Positions 4,484-37,647 of a stretch of 37,647 nucleotides of DNA are shown piece by piece. A program made the translations under genes and the position numbers. The notes under the pieces were generated by a model. That model worked only from the letters and a program-made list of their open reading frames with translations. It made no database searches and was not told where the DNA came from. The stretch is from an uncultured Muribaculaceae bacterium. GTDB lineage: Bacteria > Bacillota_I > Bacilli_A > RF39 > UBA660. How positions within the stretch are numbered: the first letter of the stretch is position 1; the number at the start of each line of letters is the position of its first letter. The stretch spans positions 1 to 37,647 of the forward strand of contig CAZQAO010000003.1 in assembly GCA_964591225.1 (NCBI GenBank), in the 5' to 3' direction.

Positions 4484-5581
4484 TTAATCAGATAAAAAGT
4501 CCTTTAATTTTTTAGCCCGCGATGGATGTCTTAATTTTCGTAAAGCTTTGGCTTCTATTTGTCTTATTCTTTCTCGCGTAACATTAAACTTCTTCCCTAC
4601 TTCTTCTAAAGTATGACTAGTGCCATCGACAAGACCAAACCGAAGTTCTAATACTTCTTGTTCTCTTTCTTGTAAAGTTTCCAAAACTGATTTTATTTCT
4701 TCTTTTAAAATCTCATTAGTAGCGTATTCTTCAGGACTCATCGTATTAATATCTTGAACAAAATCTCCTAAATGCGAATCATCTTCTTCACCAATTGGTG
4801 TTTCCAAAGAAACGGGATCTTGACTAATTTTAATTACTTCTCTTACTTTTTCGACAGTAATTCCCATTTTCTTAGCAATTTCTTCTTCAGTTGGTTCCCG
4901 GTTTAACTCTAATGTTAGTTGTCTTTGAATCCGGGCCATTTTATTAATCGTTTCGACCATATGAACGGGGACTCTAATGGTTCTGGCTTGATCTGCTAAA
5001 GCTCTAGTAATAGCTTGTCGAATCCACCAAGTAGCATATGTCGAAAACTTAAATCCTTTGTCATAATCAAATTTATCGACTGCTTTCATAAGCCCAATAT
5101 TACCCTCTTGAATTAAATCTAAGAACAATAATCCTCTTCCGACATATCTTTTGGCAATGGATACTACTAACCGTAAGTTAGATTCAGCTAAGATATTTTT
5201 GGCCATCTCATCACCAGAAGCAGCTCTTTTCGATAGTTCTAACTCTTCTTCAGGAGACAGTAAACTAATTTTTCCAATTTCTTTTAAATACATTCTGACG
5301 GGATCGTTAATATTAACATCTTTGGTAATTTCTTCATCTTCTAATATTAAAGGTTCATCTTTTTTCAGATCTTTATCATCATTATTTTCATTTTCTTCAT
5401 CACCATCAATAATTTCAATATTATTGTCGACAAAGAAATTGTATAATTCATCTAACGAATCACTATCGATATCTAAACCCTTTAAAGAATCTGCTAATTG
5501 TTCAAAGGTAATAGTTCCATTTTCTTTACCTAATTTTAATAATTCCGTTTTTCTTTCTTCTAATGTTTTAATTGTTTTCAT
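4484..5581 (-). CDS. sigA: Primary RNA polymerase sigma factor (sigma-70/SigA)
   Basis: Acidic region 1.1. Region 2 motifs [38 protein letters not shown]. Region 4.2 motif [30 protein letters not shown]. Confidence 0.97.
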
Positions 5582-7313
5582 CTTTGGACACTTCCTTTTT
5601 TATTTCCGCAATTTTTTCCGTTAAAGCAATTTTTTTATTGACATCATATTCTGTTTTTAATTCTGCTTTTAAATTCTGTATTTCTTGTTCTTTTATTTTC
5701 TTTTTTAATTTAAGAATGAGTTCATTCATTAATTCTTCATTGACTTCTTTAATCTGGACAGTATTTATTATATCCATAATTTGATTTTTTAAATTACTTG
5801 TTTCCGCATAAGTAATAAAATCCGCCAAATTTATATTTTGATTAGATTCATAATAATATAAAATCTCTCCTGCTATATCGCGTTGTTCTTTTAAGGGAAA
5901 CATACCTAGTTGGGTTTTATATTGGCGAATGTATCTTGGTTCTTGCATCATACAGTATAAAATTTCGTTACCTAATTTTTGTTCAGTACTTAGTTTCGGC
6001 CTTGTTTTTTTAAGAGGAGGGGTTTTAACTACAGGGGTTTCTTCATTCCCTAACTGTTCTTTAAGTAAGTCATAGGAGATATTATAATCATTACTTAACT
6101 TTTGTAAAGTTACTTCTTTCAAAATCGGATCATTATTTTTTTGTAAGTTAGCAATTACTGATTTTAAATAATCAGCGAGATCGACCGAAGAATCTAAATT
6201 TTTATTTTTTTTCAGATAATTTAATTTAAAATCCATGAAGGAAGTAGCGTTATGGATATTTTGAAGCATGGCATCTGCTCCATATTTTAATATGTATTCA
6301 TCGGGGTCTTTGGCACCACTTAAACGAACTACTTGAATAGTTAAGCCAGCTTCTTCTAAAATATTACCAACCGCATAAGTAGAGGTTTCCCCGGCTTCAT
6401 CATTATCTAACATCAAAATAATTTTAACTCTTAGCTTTTTTAAAGCATTAGTTTGCTCTTGAGTTAGATTAGTACCCATTAAAGCTACGACGTTTTTAAT
6501 ATTATTTAAGGATAAACGGATGGCATCCATATTTCCTTCGACAATAACGACTTCTTTTTGCAGGCGAATCTGATCTTTTGCTCGATGATAATTATAGAGA
6601 ATATTACCTTTTTTAAAAATATAAGTTTCTTTCGTATTTAAGTATTTTGGAGTTACATTTTCTAAATAACATCGTGCGGTAAAACCAACAGGATGGCCTT
6701 CAAAATCATGAATGGGAAACATAATCCGGTTTTGAAAAACATCGTAAGAATTCTCACTAGTAGTATGAATTAAACCTAAGAGGGCGATTGTTTTTTCCGG
6801 ATAACCTTTTTTGGTTAGAATATTATATAAGCCATCTTTATCTAAGGCTAAACCGATATCAAATTCTTTTGTGGCTTCACTATTTATACCCCGCTCTGTT
6901 AAATATTCTTGGGCTTTTTTACCAGCGAAACTATTTAAATTATTTTGATAAAATTTAACGGCAAAATCCATTATTTCGTATTCGGTTGCAAACTTTTCTT
7001 TCTTTTGGGTATAAATATCTCCCTTTAGAGTAATTCCTACCTTATTAGCAACTATTGAGACGGCTTCACTAAAAGATACATTTAAAAAATTCTCAATAAA
7101 CGTAAAAACATTGCCGGTCGCTCCACAAGAAAAACATTTATAAATTTGTTTTTCACTCGAAACACTCATACTAGGTGAATGATCTTCATGAAAAGGACAG
7201 ACGCCAAAATAATTTTTACCTCGTTGCGTTAAAGGAATATAAGATGCGATAATATCGACAATCGAAGCCGCATTTCGCACTTCATTAATTTCTTGTTGGG
7301 AGATAAAAGCCAT
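5568..7313 (-). CDS. dnaG: DNA primase DnaG
   Basis: Zinc ribbon [36 protein letters not shown] motifs VEGNMDAI and LDNDEAG. Overlaps the sigA start by 14 nt. Confidence 0.95.
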
Positions 7314-7384
7314 AAAAAACAGCCTCCTACTTATATATATTACATCTTATAGACAAATTTCCTTTTTTTCTTGACAAAAAATTA

Positions 7385-8278
7385 TTATATTTGACTAAAA
7401 GTTGATGATTTCTTCTCATGTAAATAATGAATTAAAGAAACGATAATGCTAGCCAAAACAATAGCAAAATAGATGCCATCATACTGAGATATTACTAAAG
7501 AAAATGGTAAGATACTTACTCCCAGTAATAAACCATAAATTACTCTTTCTTTAGGTAAATAAGGACTAGTAAGGGAGAATGAAGATAGAAATATTAACCC
7601 AAATAAAACAGGACTAGAAAACATATTAGTTAGTAAAAAACTCATATTACCTTGCGTTAAAGAATAGATAAATAAAGTTAAAAGATAGGTGGCATAACCA
7701 TATATAGGAATATCTTTTTTATAATAATAATCACTGGCTAATACCAAGTAAGAAATAAATAATAACAGTGGACTACTACAATATAATCCCCCAACTTGGT
7801 GACCAATTAAAGTATCCCAAAAAGAATAATGATACAGACCACTTTGTTCCAAACCATTTTCATAACCATACCCGAACATGAAACAAGCAAGCACCAAAAA
7901 TATTCTTCCTAAAGCTAGGGTATTGAAACTCCCAAAAGGCTTTTTAATTCTTAGCAAGCGATATAAAAATAAGCTAAGGGTTAAAATAATGGTATATACT
8001 AAAATATTAACTTGAAAAGGAATCATTAAACAAAAACCCAGACTAATTAAACGATACGAAAAAGCATCATTACTTTTAAAATAAAAATCAAAGAAAGCCC
8101 CTATACCATAACTAATAATTGGAAATAAAAAGACCATTATAGTTTGCCATAACGTTTGGTAACCTAAAACTAATGGTAGTAGGCCATTTTTATAAATACC
8201 AAAAGCAATTAATAGAAAAAATAACAAAAAATATTTTTGCGATAGAGAAACTTTGGACTCTTTATGTAATCTACTCAT
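7385..8278 (-). CDS. RnfD/NqrB-like polytopic membrane protein (degenerate)
   Basis: About 8-9 TM helices. The segment FWDTLIGHQVGGLYCSSPLLLFISYLVL resembles the RnfD G-x-x-G-E-T-S region, but the residues are not conserved. I prefer ATG 8278 (RBS agaggtg 6 nt upstream, ATGAGTAG overlap with the upstream stop) over the track's GTG at 8287. Confidence 0.55.
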   Translation of the reverse strand: MSRLHKESKVSLSQKYFLLFFLLIAFGIYKNGLLPLVLGYQTLWQTIMVFLFPIISYGIGAFFDFYFKSNDAFSYRLISLGFCLMIPFQVNILVYTIILTLSLFLYRLLRIKKPFGSFNTLALGRIFLVLACFMFGYGYENGLEQSGLYHYSFWDTLIGHQVGGLYCSSPLLLFISYLVLASDYYYKKDIPIYGYATYLLTLFIYSLTQGNMSFLLTNMFSSPVLFGLIFLSSFSLTSPYLPKERVIYGLLLGVSILPFSLVISQYDGIYFAIVLASIIVSLIHYLHEKKSSTFSQI

Positions 8279-9404
8279 TATTATCACCTCTAAGATACTT
8301 AGCTAAATTGATATGAGCGGGACATATATAAGTACATAAACCACACTCTATACACTTAACTGTGTCTTTTTTTTGTAAAGCTAATAAAGGGTTAGAATTA
8401 ATTGGACATACTTCTAAACATTTACCACATAATAAACATTGTTGTTCTTTACTATTCTTTTTGGTCATAATAACAATTCCTTGTAAATCTTTCGTCACAA
8501 TTAATTTTTCAATATCAATCTTTTTACCATGCATGAGTCCATTAGCATAAATATCGCAAGTATTAAAATTGGTCGCATAAAAATGAAAGAGTAAATCACT
8601 TACTTTAGTACCTAATTTAACATTAAAAACTTGAGGATTAGGAACTGCATCTCCCGATACCGTAAGATAAGTTTCTAATAAAGCTTTACGTTTCTTCATA
8701 TTTTGATAAAAAGTATAAACTTCATGAGCTTTTAAATAGATATAATTACCCTTAATATTTAATTTAGTTGGTAAAAATTGTTCTTCGCCAATTAAATAGT
8801 AATCGTCTACTAAACATAAATTAATATTTTGATAAGTTCCTAGAAAATCTTGATAAGCCGCAATATTCTCGCCATCCATATTTTTAATAGCGATATAAGC
8901 TGTACTGCCCGGAAAAAGTTGTAATAATGCATCTAAAGTTTCTAAAATAATTTTCGTATTTTCTTTTTGATAAAAAATTTCGGTCGCAATATATGGTTCT
9001 TCATCAATCCCCGACATAATAATAGATGTGACATTTTCTTTATTTAAAAACCGGTCGGGATCTAAATCTTTTAAATCAGTTCGTAAATCATCCATAGTAA
9101 TTTGACTAATTTTTTTGCGAGTAGCTTGTCTTTTTCCCGTCTTTTCTTGAAAATTATTAGCAATTACTAAACATTTTCCTTGTTCTTTGTTATAAAATTC
9201 ACATTCTTTAATACCTAAAATATTACCGGAGACCGAAGCATAAGTATGGGGAAATAACTCTTGTTCTTTAGTTACTTCTTCATTTTTTTTGAAAGGCAAA
9301 GCCCGATTTAAAATCGGTACATAAACAAAATCAGGATCTAAATAATCCGTAATCTTACTTTTCAGTTTAATTGTGTAATCTTTTTCTAGCTTTACTGCTT
9401 TCAT
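8271..9404 (-). CDS. RnfC-like iron-sulfur protein (SLBB-like domain plus 2x[4Fe-4S] ferredoxin motifs)
   Basis: C-terminal CLLCGKCLEVCP and CIECGLCTYICP. SLBB-like TVSGDAVPNPQVFNVKLGTKVSDLL. GIDEEPYIA replaces the RnfC NGAECEPY motif. No GGAGFP-type glycine loop seen. ATG 9404 is preferred over the track's TTG at 9416. Confidence 0.6.
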   Translation of the reverse strand: MKAVKLEKDYTIKLKSKITDYLDPDFVYVPILNRALPFKKNEEVTKEQELFPHTYASVSGNILGIKECEFYNKEQGKCLVIANNFQEKTGKRQATRKKISQITMDDLRTDLKDLDPDRFLNKENVTSIIMSGIDEEPYIATEIFYQKENTKIILETLDALLQLFPGSTAYIAIKNMDGENIAAYQDFLGTYQNINLCLVDDYYLIGEEQFLPTKLNIKGNYIYLKAHEVYTFYQNMKKRKALLETYLTVSGDAVPNPQVFNVKLGTKVSDLLFHFYATNFNTCDIYANGLMHGKKIDIEKLIVTKDLQGIVIMTKKNSKEQQCLLCGKCLEVCPINSNPLLALQKKDTVKCIECGLCTYICPAHINLAKYLRGDNNE

Positions 9405-15921: not shown

Positions 15922-17196
15922 TTACTTATCGGTTTCTATTACATAAGGATCTTCTTCGGTCCCTGAACCAGTTACATAAGTTCTTTTCATAATATTAATT
16001 ACCGGTTTTAAACCCCGGTAGTAACTACCGACACTTTCGGTTTTTAAACTACCATTTTCCCCAATTTCAAAAAAGTGAATCTCGTTACCATCATTACTAG
16101 CAGGAGTTAAGGTCCAAAACGAAGTATTTTTACCGGGAGTATATAAATAATAAGCGGTATTAGCACTATTCTTACTAGCACCCGCATAAACTGCTTCATC
16201 AGCAGTCAATAAACCAATTTTGGCATTAAAACGATCCCCTAAACAATTAGCTACCGGATTATAATCAGTAAGTAACCGGGAATATCCTAAGTAATAAGTT
16301 GTATTATTAATCATTTCCGCTACGGAATCATCGATACAGTACTTAGAATTGACGATATAACGTTCATAAGAATTTAAATATATATCGTACCAATTTTTTA
16401 AAGTTTCTAACATATTACCTTGCGTATAGTTTAATTTCTCTTCAATTGAGGCGGTACTATCCGTATTATAATAATTAGAAGTTTCTTCGATATAATCATC
16501 TAAAACTAGTTTGACAGTTTTATCGCCATTAATTTTTACAATCCGCCAGGTAAGGCTGGCAAAAGAAACATAATTATTAGGAACTTGACCCCGAAAATAG
16601 TAAGCAGAACCAAAATCATCCGTAGTTTCAATTAAACCTTCATTTTCGGTAGCAACATTTTCTCCTAATTTCGTTTTAGCATTATTTTGTACTTGATTAT
16701 CATTTAAGATAGTAGCTGCAAAGTAATCTTGCTCTTCTTGCTCTCTAGATACTTCTAACTCTGCTTTTAAACTAGCATGAGAATTATCATATAAAATTAA
16801 AGTATAAGTATGAGTTTCGTGAGGTTCGATATCAATATAACTAAATAAATAAGCTTCTAAAGAGGGAAAAGGAACATGATCAAAATTTACTTTATTCGTC
16901 TTTTCTACTAAGGAATATAATAAATTTTCTTGATTACTAGCAATATCTTTTACTTGCAACGAATAAGATATTTTTTCTTCCGTATTATTGGTAACGGAAA
17001 TAACATAACTTGTTTCTTGGCCACTATAACGAATAGTATTACCATTTAAATAATTAATTGATAATCCATCTTGAACAACGACCACAGCACTTTCTAAATA
17101 ATTATTTTTATAATATAAATAAGAAATCGCTAGAAAAATGGAAAATATTAATAAAAGACCAATAATTCTTAATTTAACTTTATATTTTTTCTTCAT
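15922..17196 (-). CDS. Membrane-anchored surface protein with C-terminal lectin-like 'W-T-L-T-P ... G-L-K-P-V-I-N' module
   Basis: N-terminal TM anchor. Contains AYYFRGQVPNNYVSFASLTWRIVKINGDKTVKLV. C-terminus reads FWTLTPASNDGNEIHFFEIGENGSLKTESVGSYYRGLKPVINIMKRTYVTGSGTEEDPYVI. This is the same module type as the C-terminus of 36402..37647. Confidence 0.7.
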   Translation of the reverse strand: MKKKYKVKLRIIGLLLIFSIFLAISYLYYKNNYLESAVVVVQDGLSINYLNGNTIRYSGQETSYVISVTNNTEEKISYSLQVKDIASNQENLLYSLVEKTNKVNFDHVPFPSLEAYLFSYIDIEPHETHTYTLILYDNSHASLKAELEVSREQEEQDYFAATILNDNQVQNNAKTKLGENVATENEGLIETTDDFGSAYYFRGQVPNNYVSFASLTWRIVKINGDKTVKLVLDDYIEETSNYYNTDSTASIEEKLNYTQGNMLETLKNWYDIYLNSYERYIVNSKYCIDDSVAEMINNTTYYLGYSRLLTDYNPVANCLGDRFNAKIGLLTADEAVYAGASKNSANTAYYLYTPGKNTSFWTLTPASNDGNEIHFFEIGENGSLKTESVGSYYRGLKPVINIMKRTYVTGSGTEEDPYVIETDK

Positions 17197-23830: not shown

Positions 23831-25084
23831 TTACCTAGACTTAATTTTAGCTAAACGTTTCCCTAAATCAATATCGTAATCTAAATCTTCATTGATAATT
23901 GGTCTTATTTGCCAAAAAAGTTTATTGATCTCATCTAAGCGATAAACTTTATCCGGAGCATTTTTAATATCTTCTAAATATAAATCTAGGTACGAAATAG
24001 CATTTGCTATAACTTCATTATCACTATGAGCCATTATTTTATCAAAAAATGCATAATATTCTGCAATAGTATTAGGATAAGCAAAAATAACTACTTGATA
24101 TAAATTTTTTAAACAAGTTTTAATTTCTTTTTCTTCGATGCCGAGTCTTACTAAATCAGCACTTAAACTAATCATTTCGTCATAAGTTAAAGGATAAATT
24201 ACTCTTTGTAAATCAATATCATATATCGATTGAATTTTATGATACAACTTTTTATAATCCCGAGGAGCTAATTTTTCTAAATTTAAAGAAGCACTTTTTG
24301 GTTCCATACTCAAATATTCGGTTTCTTTTTGTTTGCGTTTTTCTAATTGATTTTGTAATAAATATTCGATCTTCTCTCGTAAGACCGCATTAATTTTCAA
24401 AGCTTGAAAAGCCTTCATAACAAATTTAATATCTTTTTCCGTATAATTATCATTGGCAAAATAATGACTTTCTAAAGATGAATAAATAATAGCTTGGGGA
24501 TGAATAGTTTTTAAATTATTTAAATATTCTGCTACTTGTTTTTGGAATTGTTGTTGCTCATAAGTTAAATTCTCAGGATTTTCTTGTAAAACTTCATTTA
24601 AATCTTTACTAAATAAAAATTTATTATATTCTTCCTTATTCATTCCCGCAATTTGAAATGGTTTTAAATCCTTAGCATTTAAAAAGACTGAATCATCGTT
24701 ATTAATAATTCTAATATTTCTTTGTAAAAAAACATAAATAATATTTAAGTCATCGCGAGTAGGTAATTTACTTTGCAATAATAACCGAGATAAAGCCGCA
24801 AAGTTATCAAAAATACCTAAATACTCTTGATTATCATCAATAATATAATCTAAATATGCTAAGACATGATAAAGATCTTGACCATATTTCATAAAATCAC
24901 TTTGCGCATAATTTTCTTGAATTTCCTTATAAATATCTTCTTTTCTAAGATTAGGACCTAATTCCCCCATTTTTTTGGTTAAGATACGGCGACAATCCTT
25001 TCCGTATTGCAGCGCCCATTTAGTAACTTCTTCTTTGAGAAAATCGGCTAACTTTTGGATACTTTTCATTTTTTCTGTTTCCAT
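23831..25084 (-). CDS. Hypothetical cytoplasmic protein, 417 aa, apparently helix-rich by composition, no recognisable motif
   Basis: Long ORF with RBS aaaggag 6 nt upstream of the ATG, its own consensus promoter and its own terminator. No TM helix, signal peptide or catalytic motif seen. Confidence 0.7.
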   Translation of the reverse strand: METEKMKSIQKLADFLKEEVTKWALQYGKDCRRILTKKMGELGPNLRKEDIYKEIQENYAQSDFMKYGQDLYHVLAYLDYIIDDNQEYLGIFDNFAALSRLLLQSKLPTRDDLNIIYVFLQRNIRIINNDDSVFLNAKDLKPFQIAGMNKEEYNKFLFSKDLNEVLQENPENLTYEQQQFQKQVAEYLNNLKTIHPQAIIYSSLESHYFANDNYTEKDIKFVMKAFQALKINAVLREKIEYLLQNQLEKRKQKETEYLSMEPKSASLNLEKLAPRDYKKLYHKIQSIYDIDLQRVIYPLTYDEMISLSADLVRLGIEEKEIKTCLKNLYQVVIFAYPNTIAEYYAFFDKIMAHSDNEVIANAISYLDLYLEDIKNAPDKVYRLDEINKLFWQIRPIINEDLDYDIDLGKRLAKIKSR

Positions 25085-30462: not shown

Positions 30463-30490
30463 AAAAAAGAAAAAAGGAAAAATTTCCTTT
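30460..30490 (-). terminator. Probable rho-independent terminator of valS
   Basis: Minus strand reads aaaggaa-attt-ttccttt followed by tttcttttttg. The stem is AT-rich and overlaps the valS stop codon. Confidence 0.5.
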
Positions 30491-33020
30491 AATCATCCAT
30501 TAAGGCTAATTTTTCCTCTTCTAATCGCAAACGTTCTTTTTCTTCCTCTACTAAATGTTGAGGTGCTTTGGTAACATAATTTTCGTTTGCTAATAAAGCT
30601 TTTCTTCTTGCAATACTGGCTACTAACCGAGCTTTTTCTTTTTTAATTAATTCTTGTTCTTCTAAAGTTACTACTTTTTCATAATAAATACTGGCTTCAT
30701 ATAACTTACTTTTTACTTTGTAGGCGGTAATATCAAGATCTTCAGTAGTTATTTTATCTGATATTTTTAATAATTTAATAATTAAATCATTATTTTCGGT
30801 AGAAGACAATTTAACTTTAAAATCTTTATCAATTTTATTTTCCGCCCGGATATGTAAAAATTCTTTAACAAATTCAAATAAATCATCTATTTCTTTTTCC
30901 GTTTCTTTATATACCTTAGTTTTATCATATAAAGGATAAGAGCTAATCATAATATTTTCTTCATGAAAAGGTACTAAACGATAGATTTCATCAGTTACAA
31001 AAGGCATAAAAGGATGAAGCATTTTTAAAATAGCTGATAAAGTATAAACAAGAGTACTTTGGGTTTTTACATCTTTAATACTAAACTTCGCCATTTCAAT
31101 ATACTTATCACAAAAATCATTCCAAATAAATTCATATAAAGTGGCTCCCACATTATTAAATTCATATTTTTCCATATATTTAGTAACTAATTTAATTGTT
31201 TGATTTAATTTAGTTAAAATCCATTGATCTTCCTTTTTTAAATTTCCAAATTGATAATCAGAATCTTTTAAATCTTGAACATTCATTAAAACAAACCGAG
31301 AAGCATTCCATAGTTTATTAATAAAATTCCAAGTAGATTTTATTTTTTCTTCATCAAACCGAATATCGGTCCCATTACTAGCGGAAGTAGCTAAGTAGTA
31401 ACGTAAGGAATCCGCTCCATATGTTTCGACCATATCCATAGGATCAATGCCATTACCTAGAGATTTCGAAAATTTCCGTCCTTGTTTATCCCGAATTAAA
31501 CCATGAATTAAACAATCTTTAAATGGTCTTTTCCCGGTAAACTCTAAAGCTTGAAAAGTCATTCGATTAACCCAAAACGGAATAATATCATAACCAGTTA
31601 CTAAACAATTATTAGGATAGTATCTTTTAAAATCTTCGGTTTCCACTGGCCAACCTAACGTCGAAAAAGGCCATAAAGCACTACTAAACCAAGTATCTAA
31701 AACATCTTCATCTTGAACCCATCCCTCTTCTTTAGGAGGATTCATTCCCACATAAACTTGATCTTCTTTATACCAAGCTGGAATTTGATGTCCCCACCAT
31801 AATTGTCTAGAGATACACCAGTCATAAGTAATTTCCATCCAATGATTCATTACTTTTTCATAACGAGCTGGGATAAAATTTACTTTAGTGTCTTTATTTT
31901 TTTGATTTTTTAAAACTTGGTCAGCTAAAGGACGCATTTTGACAAACCATTGCTTTGATAAATAAGGTTCGACAACTGCATCACTTCGCTCAGAATGACC
32001 AACATTATGAACCATTGGTTCAATTTTAATTAATAAATTAGCTTCTTGTAAATCTTTTACTAACTCTTTGCGACAGACAAAACGATCCATTCCCGCATAC
32101 TTACCACATTTATCATTCATCGTCCCATTTGGTTCCATAACTACAATTTTTTCTAAATTATGTCTTAAACCAACTTCATAATCATTAGGATCATGAGCGG
32201 GAGTAATTTTCACTACCCCAGTTCCAAATTCCATATCGGCATGTAAATCAGCTACAACGGGAATTAAGCGATTAACAATTGGTAAAACAACATTTTGACC
32301 AATATATTTTTGATAACGTTTATCATGAGGATTAACGGCTACAGCGGTATCACCAAATAAAGTTTCTGGTCGCGTCGTAGCTACTTCTAAATATTCGGTT
32401 TTACTACCCTCTAAGAAATATTTTAGATGATAAAAAGCACCCTTATCTTCTTTAAAAATAACTTCTTCATTCGATAAGGCTGTCATAGCGACGGGATCCC
32501 AATTAATAATGCGTTCGCCCCGATAGATAAGACCTTTATTATATAAATCGACAAAAACTTTTCGGACTGCTAAAGATAAGCCTTCATCTAAGGTAAATCT
32601 TTCTTTACTATAATCGAGTGATAAACCTAAAACTGCCCATTGCTCATGAATATTTTGCGCATATTCTTCTTTCCATTCCCAAGCTTTTTTTAACCACTCT
32701 TCTCTTTTCATCGACCGGGGTTCAATGCCCTCTTCTTTTAACTTTTTATCTACTTTAGCTTGAGTAGCAATACCAGCATGATCCATACCGGGTAACCATA
32801 GAGCATCATAACCTTGCATTCTTTTAAAACGAATAATAATATCTTGTAAAGTAGTATCCCAGGCATGACCTAAATGAAGTTTACCTGTTACATTAGGTGG
32901 GGGAATAACAATAGCATAGGGTTTCTTAGTTTTATCACCACTACTAAAATAGCCTTTTTCTTTCCAATAAGCATATTTACCTTGTTCAACAGCTTTATGA
33001 TCATATTTTTTATCTAACAT
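30489..33020 (-). CDS. valS: Valine--tRNA ligase
   Basis: HIGH motif ([13 protein letters not shown]), KMSKS motif (KFSKSLGN), editing domain, C-terminal coiled coil. ATG 33020 ([19 protein letters not shown]) is preferred. The track's TTG 33038 directly abuts the leader terminator T-tract and has no RBS. Confidence 0.97.
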
Positions 33021-33039
33021 TTTATCCCTTCTTTCCAAT

Positions 33040-33265
33040 AAAAAAACTCTTTCCTTCTTATAAAGGACGAGTTTTCCCGCGGTACCACCTTAATTCATAC
33101 CATGTATGCACTTATTTTCGATAACCGTCGAAAGCGGAAAAAACTTACTTACCATAAGTTTAATAGCTCCACTGCAACCTTCAATAAAAATTGTACTTAT
33201 TTGCACCATCCATAAGTTCTCTTTAAAGCAATTATTTATTTACTCCTCAGTTTCTTGGCCTTTGT
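33040..33265 (-). promoter_or_regulatory. T-box riboswitch leader of valS
   Basis: Minus strand carries the T-box core aattaaggtggtaccgcggg (33095-33076). A terminator follows: aaaactcgtcctt-tataag-aaggaaagagtttt plus a T-run, at about 33043-33075. Stem I elements aaagagaac and ggtgcaa are present. Candidate valine specifiers are GUU in gaaGGTTg (33178-33176) or GUA in aaGTAc; I could not decide between them by eye. Confidence 0.85.
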
Positions 33266-33268
33266 ATT

Positions 33269-33297
33269 ATTCTAACGTATAATTTATTCAATTGCAA
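33269..33297 (-). promoter_or_regulatory. Putative SigA promoter of the valS leader (TTGCAA-17-TAGAAT)
   Basis: Minus strand has ttgcaa (33297-33292), a 17-nt spacer, then tagaat (33274-33269). The -35 lies inside the last codons of the upstream ORF. Confidence 0.4.
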
Positions 33298-34225
33298 TAA
33301 TTTCTTCTAACGAACCTTTATAATTTACTTGAATTTCATCATAATCAGTAACTAATTCAATATCTTCTATAGAAGTAACTGGATACATTTGACTTACTTG
33401 TTCGCTCGTACTTAAATTATATAAGTAAAAATTAGAATTCAGATCAATAATTTCTAAATATTTATTATAAAAATTAATATAATTTAAATTTTCTAAATAT
33501 ACTCTTTCTTTATAATCCATTAATTTCATTTGATTTTCTAACTTAATCACAATATATTCATTATTATAAGAAAATAAATCTTCAGCTAACGTTTCCGTAT
33601 AAGTAGCGCCATCAGCTCCAATTAATTGCCAACTATTCTCTCGGTAGACAGCAAAGACACCTGAAGAAATTTTATTTTCATTTTCGTCAATGTGATTAGC
33701 CAGTCCAATATAATCATATTGAAAAGGAATATGGACATTTACGCCATTTTTAAAAGATATAACTCCCCATAAATCATCGTCATTTTGTAAGATATAATAA
33801 TCTCCAACAATTCCAATACCATAATTTTTAACTTGCTTATAAGTACCAATTACCCTTTGTAATTCAATATCATATAACGAAATTAAACCCTCTTCTTTTT
33901 GATTAGTATCGGTTAGAAAAGCATAACGATTTTTAATCACCGGCAATTCCTGATTTTCTTCGCTAACTGGTTCAGCTAAAGACGATTCACTCTTCGTTGA
34001 AGTTTTAGCTAAATTACAATTATTAACATAATTACAAGTATAAGTACCAACTAACGTATCTTGATTATAGAAATACAACTTACCATTATATTTAAAATCA
34101 TGATTAGGGTTTTCTTCTTCCACATGAGTTCCTTGAAAATGCTTAACAGTTCCATATATAGCTGTCGGAACAAAGATTATTAATAAAACAATAATAGTCC
34201 AAAAAGTTATTTTTTTATTCTTCAT
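33284..34225 (-). CDS. Membrane-anchored extracytoplasmic protein with WG-like beta-repeat motifs (shorter paralog of 34215..36371)
   Basis: N-terminal TM helix (FWTIIVLLIIFVPTAIYG). Motifs GKLYFYNQDTLVGTYTCNYVNNCNLAKTS, RYAFLTD, SLYDIELQRVIGTY and DLWGVISFKNGVNVHIPFQYDYIGL. Its start overlaps the upstream gene by 11 nt. Confidence 0.7.
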   Translation of the reverse strand: MKNKKITFWTIIVLLIIFVPTAIYGTVKHFQGTHVEEENPNHDFKYNGKLYFYNQDTLVGTYTCNYVNNCNLAKTSTKSESSLAEPVSEENQELPVIKNRYAFLTDTNQKEEGLISLYDIELQRVIGTYKQVKNYGIGIVGDYYILQNDDDLWGVISFKNGVNVHIPFQYDYIGLANHIDENENKISSGVFAVYRENSWQLIGADGATYTETLAEDLFSYNNEYIVIKLENQMKLMDYKERVYLENLNYINFYNKYLEIIDLNSNFYLYNLSTSEQVSQMYPVTSIEDIELVTDYDEIQVNYKGSLEEIIAIE

Positions 34226-36371
34226 CTCTATCTTCTCCAGTCGGTATAGTAAATGTTGCTACGGGTTCATAAGTATTATCCGATTTACCTATTTGTACTT
34301 GATAAGAATTATTACTACTCGTTATTTTATAAGCCATCGTACCTTCACCATAATAGCGTTCTAACAAAAGATTAACTTCTATATTAAGTAAGTTTTCACG
34401 AGGATTCTCATAAGCATAGACCATTAATTTATGATCTTTGACAGCTGTAAAGAATTTATCATACAATCCAATATATTGATATCCCGTTTGATTTAATTTT
34501 TCCCCCCGATGATTATAAACATAATATTGATTATTTTCTAGGACAGTTACATAATTTTCATTATAATTCATAATTGGACCGGGAACAGAGGCAAAATCAC
34601 TATCTTCTTTAGTATTACGATTAATAAGAATAGTCCCACTATCATTTTTAGCTTCATAATAATCGCCAATTTTTTCAATTGCTTGGTATTGGAAAGGTAT
34701 ATGAGCAGTAACATCGCCACCTATTTTAATAACTCCATAAGCATTACTTTTATTACGAGCCACTACTTGTAAATCCGTAGCATTTTGGAAAGATACTTCT
34801 TCTAATCCTGTATGCGAATAAGTATTTACAGCACCATATTTACTAATAGTCTTCTTGGCTTTTAAATCATATAAAACTACAGTTTGATTAGCATCATTTT
34901 TTAAAGTCGGATTATCATTTAAGAATACAAAACGTTCATTAAAAATAGGAATAAAACCACTTACTAATAAAGTTTCAATTTCATTCTTTTCAAATAAAGT
35001 ATCTTTAGCTATGGAACAATTCGTTAAACTAATAGTATCTTTAGTAACTTCATTTCTATTATTACAAGTATAAGTTCCTAATAAATTTTTCTTTTCGCTA
35101 TCACGATAGAAATAAATCTTGCCATCAAAATAATTAAGATATTTTAGATTTTTATTTAATAACGCTTCTAACTTATTTAAAGTAATAGTATTTATAATTT
35201 TACCCTCACTATCAAATATAGATATCGTAATAATGGAATCATTTTCTTCTAAAGCAAACGATTTTAAAGTTTTAATTAATTTTTTATTTTCATCATAAAT
35301 ATTAGTAGTAACAAAATCGGTATTAACTAATACCATATCTTCTTCATGTAACTTAGTTTGATCATAAAATTGTAAATATAACTTATTATCTTTGACGATA
35401 GCAGCATATTCATCATATATTTCTAAATAAGTACAATCGGAAAATAACATATTGCCATTTAAATCATAAGCAGCATATTTACCTAAACTATCTTTAGACT
35501 TCACATAATTTTTTTGAATATTAGTAATTTCTCCCGGAATAGTTTTACTAACATTTTTACCATTTTCATCAATTAATACATTCCGATTTTGTTGTTTCGA
35601 AATATAATAATGACCTTCATTTTCTGTGTATCCTAAATAATCATAATCAAAAGCAATAGAAACTGTAATCATATCATTAATCGTTAATACGCCATATTGA
35701 CTTTGATCATTTTTAACAATAAAGTTATTTTCATTTGTTCCCTTTTTAACTAATTGATAAATTTCTTCGGCCGCATTTTTATTAGCTATATCATATAAAT
35801 AAATAGTATTTTCTTTTTCTTTACCATCATTTATAAAAACATAATTATTTTGAATAATTGGAATTCGTTCTGGAATAGGTGTACCATCTTCATATTGTTT
35901 CTTTAAAGTATCAAAAGAATCTTCTGTACTATAATAAGAGATATAACATAAATTTTCATCTTTATTCTTACAATCATAACGACCAATTTCTTCTTTATTT
36001 TCATCTAAAAAAACAAGGGTACCATTTTCATAGCGATAATTTTCTAATTCTACAATAACTTCTGGTTCTTCTTCTATAGGTTCCTCAGGTTCATTTTTTA
36101 AAAAATGACGGACTGTAAAAACAATTCCTACTACAATTAATGCTAGTATTAATATTAAGGAAATAATAAGTAGAATTTTTTTAGGTTTAGAAAGTTTATT
36201 CCACCATTTTTTTAATTTTCCTAACCGATTTTTTTTATTCTTTTTTTTCTTTTTAGATGAAGTGGATACTTCTTTTTTTTCTTCTTCTAATTTATTTTGA
36301 TCAATTAAATCATCCAAAGTATCAATTGGGGTTGTTGCATCTATATCTTTATTTTCGGTACTTTTTGGCAT
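34215..36371 (-). CDS. Large membrane-anchored extracytoplasmic protein with repeated Cys-motif / WG-like modules
   Basis: Lys-rich cytoplasmic N-terminus, a TM helix (ILLIISLILILALIVVGIVFTV), then repeated modules: GRYDCKNKDENLCYISYYS, GTYTCNNRNEVTKDTISLTNCSIAKDT, QYGVLTINDMITVSIAFDYDYLGY, AYGVIKIGGDVTAHIPFQYQAIEKIGDYY. ATG 36371 (RBS aaggaag 10 nt upstream) is preferred over GTG 36380. Confidence 0.7.
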   Translation of the reverse strand: MPKSTENKDIDATTPIDTLDDLIDQNKLEEEKKEVSTSSKKKKKNKKNRLGKLKKWWNKLSKPKKILLIISLILILALIVVGIVFTVRHFLKNEPEEPIEEEPEVIVELENYRYENGTLVFLDENKEEIGRYDCKNKDENLCYISYYSTEDSFDTLKKQYEDGTPIPERIPIIQNNYVFINDGKEKENTIYLYDIANKNAAEEIYQLVKKGTNENNFIVKNDQSQYGVLTINDMITVSIAFDYDYLGYTENEGHYYISKQQNRNVLIDENGKNVSKTIPGEITNIQKNYVKSKDSLGKYAAYDLNGNMLFSDCTYLEIYDEYAAIVKDNKLYLQFYDQTKLHEEDMVLVNTDFVTTNIYDENKKLIKTLKSFALEENDSIITISIFDSEGKIINTITLNKLEALLNKNLKYLNYFDGKIYFYRDSEKKNLLGTYTCNNRNEVTKDTISLTNCSIAKDTLFEKNEIETLLVSGFIPIFNERFVFLNDNPTLKNDANQTVVLYDLKAKKTISKYGAVNTYSHTGLEEVSFQNATDLQVVARNKSNAYGVIKIGGDVTAHIPFQYQAIEKIGDYYEAKNDSGTILINRNTKEDSDFASVPGPIMNYNENYVTVLENNQYYVYNHRGEKLNQTGYQYIGLYDKFFTAVKDHKLMVYAYENPRENLLNIEVNLLLERYYGEGTMAYKITSSNNSYQVQIGKSDNTYEPVATFTIPTGEDRDEE

Positions 36372-36401
36372 GTCTATCACACTTCCTTATTCTAGTATGC
36401 A

Positions 36402-37647
36402 TTATAACATAGAAGCTAAAAATTTAAAATATATTTTCAAGAACATAATATTCCAAAGGTTTATTAAATAGTAATTATTTCTATTACGCACTTTTAAAAT
36501 TTTTTTGATTTTGCGTAATAGAATTTTTAGAGAAGACACGCCAATCAGGAAGCGGGGACGAACACCAAGCGAGTTGTGCTCCGCGAGGGCGGCGTACGAA
36601 TAGCCACGGCCATCGACATCCGCGAAACAGTTCGATGATGCTACATCTTTGAGCCAGTAATGAAATTGTTGTCCATTATATGAATTAATTAATTCAGGTT
36701 TTAATCTAAATATGGCATATTGTTGATTATCTATTCCGGTATCCCATATACTTGATGATGCTACTATTCCTCCATATACATTCATCTCACTCATTAAATC
36801 TAATTTCCTTGTATACCATGTCCATCCTGAACTGGCTCCTTTATAATTTCCATCTGTAGTTACTCCAAATCGATTGGTTAATTTTTCATCTGTTTTATTT
36901 GTTAGCAAGTTTGAGTATGTGAGGACATGTTCAACACCACTTAATGTAAAATCTTCTTTTATATAGTTTTCATATATTTCATCTAATGTTCCTTTTCCAT
37001 CTCCAGGAGATGTACAATCTGATTGATTAACAGCCTTAACCATTTCACTCCCCGCATATCCACATTTTGTAGTATCTGTTGAATTCATTTTTGCATTCTC
37101 TAATGGCTTGGCGGGGATTATCGTAACATGATGTTGGGTTAATATACCATTATTACTTCCATTAATAGATGGACAACCTTCTCCATTACATCCTGTATAT
37201 CTATAATTGTCTATATCTGCTATTAACCAAGTAACTTCTTCATGTGTCTTACTTTCTATATAATCCCCAACATAGATATCATCAAATTGACCACTACTTA
37301 TAGATTGATAGAATTCTTCATTTAATTCTAGTTTCTTCCCTCTATACGTATTTCGTCTTAGGGCTATTCCTGCATCTATATGTTCTTGATATTCTGTTGC
37401 AGTTAATTTAGCTGTAAAATCTAATTTACATTTCGTTCCTGATGTTACATTTTCTAGTTTTAGATTCCACGCATTATAATCCCATGTTCCTTGTACTGGT
37501 GTTTCACTATTACCATTTTTACTACTACAATCTACTTTTACGTCGTAATACTTACCATCTTCACCATCTTTTTTTCTTCCTGGTAGTTTTGAATCTTCTT
37601 TTCCATCTACGGTGATGGCTACTTTGACATCATAGTCATAATCTGGT
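36402..37647 (-). CDS. Surface / receptor-binding-type protein with C-terminal lectin-like module carrying a GC-rich hypervariable-looking patch (5' end outside the window)
   Basis: The track lists only 36402..37088, from an internal Met. I checked every in-frame triplet from 37089 to 37646 and found no stop, so the ORF continues to the window edge (...PDYDYDVKVAITVDGKED...EVTWLIADIDNYRYTGCNGEGCPSINGSNNGILTQHHVTIIPAKPLENAKMNSTDTTKCGYAGSEM...). The C-terminus reads HYWLKDVASSNCFADVDGRGYSYAALAEHNSLGVRPRFLIG plus a 45-aa basic/hydrophobic tail. Confidence 0.8.
   Translation of the reverse strand, partial: PDYDYDVKVAITVDGKEDSKLPGRKKDGEDGKYYDVKVDCSSKNGNSETPVQGTWDYNAWNLKLENVTSGTKCKLDFTAKLTATEYQEHIDAGIALRRNTYRGKKLELNEEFYQSISSGQFDDIYVGDYIESKTHEEVTWLIADIDNYRYTGCNGEGCPSINGSNNGILTQHHVTIIPAKPLENAKMNSTDTTKCGYAGSEMVKAVNQSDCTSPGDGKGTLDEIYENYIKEDFTLSGVEHVLTYSNLLTNKTDEKLTNRFGVTTDGNYKGASSGWTWYTRKLDLMSEMNVYGGIVASSSIWDTGIDNQQYAIFRLKPELINSYNGQQFHYWLKDVASSNCFADVDGRGYSYAALAEHNSLGVRPRFLIGVSSLKILLRKIKKILKVRNRNNYYLINLWNIMFLKIYFKFLASML
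36479..36523 (-). repeat. Perfect 12-bp inverted repeat (ttctattacgca / tgcgtaatagaa) with 21-nt spacer, immediately 3' of the GC-rich patch
   Basis: Arms at 36479-36490 and 36512-36523, spacer 36491-36511. It lies inside the AT-rich tail of the ORF, about 16 nt from the end of the GC-rich island. Confidence 0.8.
36540..36660 (-). other. Candidate DGR variable region (VR): GC-rich, adenine-poor, NNC-codon island
   Basis: Hand count for 36540-36644 on the coding strand: A15, T28, G+C 62 of 105 (59% GC), against 13/60 GC in the adjacent 36661-36720. 15 of 35 codons are NNC and 22 of 35 end in G/C. The reading frame is preserved. No matching repeat was found in the window. Confidence 0.5.

Follow-up and report, generated by a model that had tools for sequence, protein, structure and literature searches.

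A GC-rich, adenine-poor gene end as the probable variable region of a remote diversity-generating retroelement target in an uncultured bacterium

The prototype diversity-generating retroelement (DGR), that of Bordetella phage BPP-1, is characterised by adenine-biased differences between a template repeat (TR) and the variable region (VR) of its target gene, by AAY codons, by an Avd protein and a reverse transcriptase (RT), and by a GC-rich crossover and a hairpin with a 4-nt loop. DGR targets of the DUF6273 class are known from phages and prophages, namely the tentaclin-type targets (PMC10743442) and Faecalibacterium prophage targets (PMC11792537), and the VRs of DGRs sit at the C-terminus of DUF6273 (PMC11792537, PMC10743442). 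As to the number of targets, the survey of Wu et al. 2018 puts the maximum for a single element at 8 targets, of which 7 are non-adjacent (PMC5758913), and 15 targets over nine loci have been reported (PMC10907252); a large metagenome survey states that remote targets are undetectable by it (PMC8144416). Here we analyse a stretch of 37,647 nt from an uncultured bacterium (contig CAZQAO010000003.1 of assembly GCA_964591225.1), hereafter the window, in which an earlier note, made from the letters alone, had proposed a DGR variable region within a GC-rich patch at the 3' end of a minus-strand gene for a surface protein. This proposal is supported by the anatomy of the patch, by hypervariability within the protein family, and by cassettes of relatives in which TR and VR show adenine-biased differences. 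We estimate the probability that the tract delimited as the VR in Table 1 was written by a DGR at roughly 0.8.

The patch stands out from the rest of the window by its composition. In 100-nt windows across 36500-36649 the GC fraction is 0.49-0.58, against 0.18-0.34 on both flanks. Of all 105-nt windows in the 37,647 nt, those with the highest GC (0.61) and with the least adenine on the coding strand (10.5%, with a mean of 37.5%) were both located on the patch. The GC spike described in the earlier note is therefore real, although the underlying count for 36540-36644 was one base off: the note gave A15, T28 and G+C 62 (59%), and the exact composition of the coding (minus) strand is A14 C33 G30 T28, that is 60% GC. 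Its count for the AT-rich flank at 36661-36720 (13 G+C in 60) was reproduced, the patch is in frame with the translation VASSNCFADVDGRGYSYAALAEHNSLGVRPRFLIG as had been stated, and recounting gave the same codon tallies, with 22 of 35 codons ending in G or C and 15 of 35 being NNC. The background was taken from 10,017 codons of 22 other minus-strand open reading frames (ORFs), where the frequency of G or C at the third position (GC3) is 0.185 and that of NNC 0.087; the binomial probabilities of the patch values are 9e-9 and 8e-8, respectively. The codons that the note had called uncommon by impression are rare in the window, CTC, CGC and CCC occurring at 1.6, 3.2 and 4.5 per 1000 (as is CTG, at 2.0).

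In an AT-rich genome, a sudden local rise in GC also typically marks an RNA gene or a segment acquired horizontally. On that view the patch would be a fixed one, brought in by recombination or from a foreign source, or would be a structured RNA within the gene, and not the result of templated mutagenesis. It is in frame, however, and encodes the conserved scaffold of its protein family. A structured RNA or tRNA was rejected: within the patch there was no Rfam match at the gathering threshold and no tRNA, and neither strand folded better than its shuffled versions, the z scores being +0.71 and -0.62. The other form of this explanation is taken up below with the comparison of relatives.

The boundaries of the VR were set by analogy with TR/VR pairs of relatives, in which the homology starts directly after WLK(D/A/N) and ends at GGTGT(T/C)CG(T/C)CCCC. 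Within the variable-codon block (Table 1), the 15 variable codons of the window read AAC TGT GAT GAT GGC CGT TAT TAC GCC GCC CTC GAG CAC AAC CTT. The fixed codons interleaved with them (TCG TTC GCG GTC GGC TCG GCG TCG) are all free of A, and in alignments the fixed codons of the VR coincide with conserved residues of the family. A pyrimidine occupies position 3 in 14 of the 15 predicted variable codons, whose first and second positions hold A10 G9 C6 T5 (n=30). As for the 14 adenines of the patch, 10 are at positions 1-2 of variable codons, 3 are at third positions of codons at the 5' edge, and the fourteenth is in the ATT of a segment resembling an initiation of mutagenic homing (IMH) element; the 17 fixed codons of the patch thus contain a single A in 51 nt outside that edge. 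The footprint of a DGR, with NNY variable codons, a nearly A-free scaffold and no stops created, is found in the window.

Such a design can be related directly to the composition. Since any A in the scaffold would be mutagenised, scaffold codons would be limited to C, G and T. Because the scaffold is A-free and the former A positions are randomised, in a genome with 37.5% A on the coding strand and a GC3 of 0.185, the GC jump and the A depletion would fall on the templated tract. This mechanism would account for the coordinates of the patch.

Table 1. Features of the 3' end of the target gene and of its surroundings in the window.
Feature	Position (nt)	Strand	Description
Target gene, N-terminus cut by the window end	36540-37647	-	369 family-homologous codons, PDYDYDVK... 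to ...GVRPRFLIG
VR proper	36554-36644	-	GTA GCA TCA TCG ... GGT GTT CGT CCC C; tract expected to be copied from a TR
Variable-codon block	36567-36635	-	23 codons, about 15 of them variable; direct sequence reading
GC-rich 3' end, GGTGTTCGTCCCC	36554-36566	-	End of TR/VR homology in relatives
VR-specific segment, GCTTCCTGATTGGC	36540-36553	-	14 nt, encodes (R)FLIG; after the TR homology
Read-through tail	36402-36539	-	45 codons (VSSLKILL...LASML) and TAA at 36402-36404; 19.6% GC, looks intergenic
Stem-loop	36479-36523	-	12-bp stem TTCTATTACGCA / TGCGTAATAGAA, 21-nt loop, 17 nt past the last family codon; fold z -4.19
Promoter-like site	36401-36428	-	TTTAAA, 16 nt, TG-TATAAT, inside the read-through tail, for gene 34215-36380; consensus 10/12 and extended -10
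T-box leader	33060-33265	-	124 bits against a gathering score of 93; upstream of class I aminoacyl-tRNA synthetase gene 30489-33038

The 3' end of the VR was compared with those of relatives (loci from the collections searched are designated here by L numbers). In L045, L062, L327 and L329, TR and VR are the same up to the GGTGTTCGTCCCC motif and diverge right after it; by this analogy, GGTGTTCGTCCCC is likely to be the crossover point of the cDNA. The segment GCTTCCT(G/A)AT that follows is also present 3' of the cassette-adjacent VRs of L045, L050, L062, L327 and L329, whose sources include rabbit and mouse samples among others, and it follows many of the dispersed VRs of CANPZX, the rabbit-gut metagenome-assembled genome (MAG) Lapin-002__bin30. 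The TRs are without this segment and continue with CTGATTCGATATG instead. In the window, the 3' segment CGTCCCCGCTTCCTGAT is a near base-for-base match to the cassette-adjacent VRs of other genomes. We infer that GCTTCCTGATTGGC may be an IMH-like recognition segment with a role in the initiation of homing. Of the elements that could guide target recognition, the window VR has at its 3' end the GC-rich GGTGTTCGTCCCC and the VR-specific GCTTCCTGAT, and it lacks the GC hairpin with a 4-nt loop.

If the tract has been written by a DGR, relatives should differ from it at particular codon positions. In alignments, the homologs of the window protein show conserved flanks to either side of the patch, and about 15 scattered positions inside it are hypervariable. 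For a comparison at the DNA level, 24 paralogous 3' ends from CANPZX were used. Their VRs have the common design GCGGTCGCC NNC TCT ACG NNC TTT GCT NNT GTC NNC NNC NNT GGC NNT GCC NNC ACG NNC NNT GCA TCC NNC TCG NNT GGT GTC CGT CCC CGC TTC CT. Hypervariability was found at 25 columns of the 24 VRs, and 24 of these columns are at codon positions 1-2; third-position variability is 0.45 bits in the VR as against 0.91 bits further upstream in the gene. Base counts summed over the hypervariable columns are A207 G201 T100 C92, and the spectrum of the 30 variable positions of the window is close to this. Judged from the sequences, the variation at positions 1-2 in CANPZX is the product expected of AAC/AAT template codons. 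The earlier note had reasoned that an identical GC-rich patch in relatives would indicate a fixed segment. This is not what was found, for the relatives have the fixed scaffold in common and are hypervariable at codon positions 1-2. A fixed foreign patch was accordingly rejected as a candidate, since the relatives differ at exactly the codon positions expected of a VR and share no identical patch; we regard a foreign patch or embedded RNA as very improbable.

Members of the family are numerous in related genomes. Among 79 loci from genome_contigs, there are at least 30 copies in Lapin-002__bin30, at least 15 in Lapin-018__bin93, at least 15 in Lapin-005__bin63 and at least 12 in Lapin-005__bin86; these counts are lower bounds because they cover 80 of 170 matches, and MAGs may merge strains, which affects the copy and VR counts per genome. 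Most family members in relatives are dispersed, lying among varied housekeeping genes. Many copies are found within about 1 kb of contig ends in the related MAGs; the family genes break assemblies.

Some of these copies have features of their own. The VRs of L053:7948-8055 and L068:5047-5155, and likewise those of L013 and L023, are identical with different 3' ends and flanks, each pair coming from one MAG, which suggests recent duplication, gene conversion or strain-level redundancy of the assembly. In L001:11016-11305 (homolog P0015) there are two in-frame tandem VR-bearing ends, the stop of the first copy being missing; the two differ at scattered positions, as two independently written VRs would. 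Finally, a stray family 3' end, ARPRFLIN*, is present at L067:6690-6760, downstream of an intact gene of the family and some 380 nt away from it, with no gene body before it and with a terminator-like hairpin after it as in other copies. By its sequence, this stray end is a remnant of another family copy.

Complete DGR cassettes were found next to family members in relatives. Six related loci have Avd, one to three TRs and RT, in this order, after a family member (scoring with the Avd model did not extend to the middle ORF of L329). Hidden Markov models (HMMs) of RT and Avd, derived with jackhmmer and built from DGR loci, gave matches to both directly after family members at three loci (L045, L062, L069); at L050 and L066, where the contig ends, the family member is followed by Avd alone. 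An RT with PF00078 comes after family targets in L045, L062, L069, L324, L327 and L329, and the family of this RT comprises 4955 proteins at E<=1e-40. The TRs of the relatives lie between Avd and RT. When TRs were compared with the adjacent VRs, 10 of 12, 15 of 19 and 2 of 2 mismatches were at TR adenines, and the TR/VR pairs of L327 and L329 have, by reading, the same adenine pattern. Further TRs were recovered through RT look-ups in L324, L327 and L329; L325/L326 and L328 start too near the RT to include one.

Several templates may be present in one cassette. Between Avd and RT there are three tandem units of about 280 nt at L045:11660-12500 and two at L062:4630-5185, each unit consisting of a different TR and a conserved spacer of about 140-180 nt (CCCCTGATTCGATATG...ATATGGAAGGAA...). 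Because the tandem units carry different TRs, one RT appears to be served by several alternative templates. The TR at L069:11620-11760 is of another kind: it is not A-rich and is 98% identical to the VR, with 2 differences that are both at TR adenines. Either a VR-like sequence seems to have overwritten this template, or the element may be inactive.

The position of the cassette is also conserved. In the relatives, fts/mur cell-division genes come first, followed by target, Avd, TR unit(s), RT, an ORF with a MutS_I domain, rpsB, tsf and frr (L045:9779-16161; L325-L328). As this order is fixed among fts/mur and rpsB-tsf-frr, the cassette is chromosomal at a conserved site and not a prophage. 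The MutS_I ORF, of about 119 aa, overlaps the end of RT and recurs in samples from different runs. For CANPZX, a scan of the target-flank loci for its predicted TR matched VRs only, and the cassette contig of that MAG ends inside Avd (L066).

The design of the window VR is also found outside the close relatives. A generic TR pattern, TTYGCNAAYGTNAAYAAYAAYGGNAAYKCNAAY, was written from it, with about 0.01 chance matches expected by our own estimate; at least 120 matches were obtained in the viral and at least 120 in the metagenome collections. Most of these loci have, near the TR, a gene whose product is 30-37% identical to the window protein; in the examples read, it is about 0.7 kb upstream of the TR. 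For instance, the phage cassette L209 has its target at 5467-6735, Avd at 6820-7377, a TR near 7414 and RT at 7633-8754.

What kind of protein carries the VR? Homologs of the window protein number 363 at E<=1e-3, with 89% of the query covered; the best 120 of the 363 are 290-434 aa long and 43-53% identical. Nearly all homologs stop exactly at RPRFLI(G/D/K/N). At their N-terminus, full-length homologs have a basic segment followed by some 20 hydrophobic residues, which would serve as a membrane anchor, so that the product is probably a cell-surface protein. By homology, some 50-75 N-terminal residues of the window protein, including the hydrophobic anchor, would be beyond nt 37647. The family thus apparently consists of membrane-anchored proteins, 340-430 aa in length, of uncultured gut Bacilli. 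The earlier note had tentatively named a lectin-like fold of the DUF6273 or C-type lectin (CLec) type, with Mtd and TvpA as structures for comparison, and this holds in part. PF19789 (DUF6273) gave weak matches to 20 of 58 aligned family members, the best at 6e-6. An AlphaFold2 (AF2) model of the window protein, based on the alignment of 58 sequences, had a mean predicted local distance difference test score (pLDDT) of 88.7 and a predicted template modelling score (pTM) of 0.87. With Foldseek against BFVD, this model matched receptor-binding proteins of phages and uncharacterised proteins, at E 1e-14 to 1e-22, and more than 10 proteins named 'DUF6273 domain-containing' at E 6e-8 to 9e-5. Against the PDB, the sole significant match was the IgA peptidase of Thomasclavelia ramosa (9qa6, 2.4e-6), and Foldseek recovered neither Mtd, TvpA nor other CLec structures from it. 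The DUF6273 label therefore stands at the level of the family, through the profile and the model matches, and the structural match to Mtd or TvpA does not. Sequence and model together support a gene with a DUF6273/C-type-lectin-like C-terminal domain that ends in the VR. The paper on these gut-bacterial IgA peptidases mentions DUF6273.

The gene directly downstream of the window VR is an unrelated ORF of 721 aa (34215-36380, minus strand) with no Pfam match. In the relatives, the cassette is downstream of the adjacent target. Because the downstream neighbour is unrelated and the cassettes of relatives are downstream, the window copy is not a cassette-adjacent target; by analogy it is most likely a remote DGR target. 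For the same reason, a cassette just beyond nt 37647, upstream of the gene, as the earlier note had also considered, is a less likely option. We think it fairly probable that this genome still has an active DGR cassette. Elsewhere in the genome, that cassette would comprise Avd, one or more TRs and a reverse transcriptase. A cDNA would be made from a TR with AAC/AAT at about 15 codons, the reverse transcriptase would misread the template adenines, and the cDNA would replace the VR up to the GC-rich GGTGTTCGTCCCC, beside the VR-specific GCTTCCTGAT segment. The whole would amount to trans-acting mutagenic retrohoming onto a remote target. A cassette of its own, action in trans on the window copy and recent writing are what we infer for this genome; recent writing is argued from the GC-rich, A-free synonymous sites that have been kept in an AT-biased genome.

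Several results speak against reading the tract as the VR of a DGR target. First, the parts of a cassette are missing from the window, as the earlier note had said and as Pfam, HMM and repeat searches confirmed: there is no RT (Pfam; best E of the RT HMM 2.9), no Avd (best E of the Avd HMM 2.0), and no copy of the patch or TR elsewhere in the 37.6 kb. Secondly, none of the six TR sets from relatives fits the window VR with adenine-only mismatches; the L327 TR does have the same 30-codon architecture. A pattern allowing the VR base or A at each position had 0 matches in genome_contigs and viral_contigs, where the window itself is likewise unmatched, so that these collections either lack this genome or have it masked. 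Thirdly, Pfam gives nothing for the window protein at E<=1, PF19789 included, and its closest database homolog is 53% identical, so that there is no ortholog for a strain comparison and none showing variation at this locus. Finally, the stop after ...RPRFLIG that nearly all relatives have is absent in the window copy, and so is the GC hairpin with a 4-nt loop that stands right after the stop of the cassette-adjacent VRs of relatives.

The last two absences may mean that the gene is a remote target needing no such hairpin, that it is a disabled fossil copy, or that the assembly has been joined there. Other exceptions to the stop exist, namely the tandem copy of L001, L017 (with 3 further aa) and L035 (with 1 further aa). 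The chance of an open stretch of 45 codons in such AT-rich sequence is, by a rough estimate, about 2%; for the read-through tail (Table 1) a real C-terminal extension is thus conceivable, though nothing speaks for one. No terminator-like site was found after the window gene. The stem-loop in the tail folds better than any of its shuffled versions (0 of 200 fold as well), and it is neither a canonical terminator nor a GC hairpin of the cassette type. The promoter-like site in the tail is a candidate promoter of the downstream gene.

A fossil or orphan VR, once written by a DGR that has since been lost, or in a target disabled by loss of the stop and the hairpin, would explain why no cassette is in the window and why the stop codon and the cassette-type GC hairpin are missing. 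Some paralogs of relatives have AT-rich 3' ends (CGCCCAAGATTCTTAATC) and look decayed, and L069, with a TR that is not A-rich and matches its VR at 98% identity, points to the existence of inactive elements. However, the 22 of 35 GC3 codons and the A-free scaffold have been kept in a genome with a GC3 of 0.185, which would argue against long decay, and many dispersed VRs of CANPZX lack the GC hairpin and still fit a common template design. A fossil is therefore unlikely in our view.

The abrupt end of the family-like sequence at 36540, without a stop, would also be expected of an assembly chimera in which the 3' end of a family gene was joined to an unrelated intergenic region; the gene would then be real, and its neighbour and the tail artefacts. 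The join would have arisen because the VR and its 3' segment recur among paralogs. In related MAGs the family genes are very often within about 1 kb of contig ends, and the gene after the VR is Avd in the cassette-bearing relatives and variable elsewhere. There is, however, no direct sign of a join, the dispersed paralogs of relatives occur in many housekeeping contexts, and the strong stem-loop and promoter-like site downstream are what is seen at an ordinary gene end. We hold a chimera to be quite unlikely; even if true, it would leave the identity of the patch unchanged and would be compatible with a VR written in trans by a DGR elsewhere in the genome.

The remainder of the window is an ordinary chromosome of the low-GC Gram-positive type, with hrcA-dnaK-dnaJ, primase, uvrC and RNase HII, a two-component system, an ABC/FtsX pair, and a class I aminoacyl-tRNA synthetase behind a T-box leader (Table 1), which is ordinary in such bacteria. 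Four minus-strand ORFs had no Pfam match at E<=1e-5: 34215-36380 (721 aa, directly downstream of the DGR target gene), 33284-34225 (313 aa), 23831-25084 (417 aa) and 15922-17196 (424 aa). A protein identical to the 313-aa neighbour is encoded on a 2.4-kb Logan contig of SRR14209496, which stops short of the target gene.

Taken as a single locus, the window gene is a DGR target of the known DUF6273 class, and it is the lineage that is more unusual. In small-genome uncultured gut Bacilli, one chromosomal cassette upstream of rpsB-tsf, with two or three TR units, may act in trans on dozens of lectin-like, membrane-anchored paralogs at scattered sites and diversify them, there being more than 30 family genes per MAG. 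We advance this tentatively, as a proposal that falls somewhat short of even odds. If true, it would mean several-fold more targets per element than the 8 (PMC5758913) or the 15 over nine loci (PMC10907252) given in the surveys consulted, and a large programmable repertoire of surface receptors in a host-associated bacterium. Many dispersed targets, multi-TR cassettes and a fixed site would, if confirmed, extend the known scale of cellular DGR use. A composition spike can in this way lead to an annotation, here that of a DGR-diversified lectin-like surface protein with its cassette elsewhere. Because surveys cannot detect remote targets (PMC8144416), a VR that is recognisable by its composition and family anatomy shows a way to find them.

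In its setting the window gene comes nearest to the cellular, multi-target DGR of Treponema denticola, and in protein and template design it agrees with the phage DUF6273 targets. With the latter it has the domain family in common, by the profile matches of family members and by the structure model; its VR is likewise at the extreme C-terminus, and its product shares 30-37% identity with targets from phage and metagenome DGR cassettes. The TR design F-A-N-V-N-N-N-G-N... and the cassette order target, Avd, TR, RT are likewise in common. Unlike those targets, the window gene is cellular, lies among housekeeping genes and has no cassette alongside, and in place of a tail-fibre domain it would have, by homology, an N-terminal membrane anchor. 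With the DGR of Treponema denticola (TvpA and remote targets; PMC5758913) it shares a cellular setting, dispersed paralogous surface-protein genes that would be served in trans, and a C-terminal VR; in contrast to this and other cellular DGRs, which have at most 8 targets, at least 24 VRs of one design are present in one MAG of the relatives, and TvpA was not recovered by Foldseek. The relatives resemble the BPP-1 element (Mtd, Avd, TR, Brt) in their adenine-biased differences, AAY template codons, Avd and RT, in a VR that closes at its 3' end with a GC-rich crossover and has a VR-specific segment beyond it, and in the hairpin with a 4-nt loop beside the cassettes. They differ from BPP-1 in that their cassettes carry two or three tandem units of TR and spacer, and the window target differs in having no similarity to Mtd by sequence or by Foldseek and a VR without hairpin and stop.

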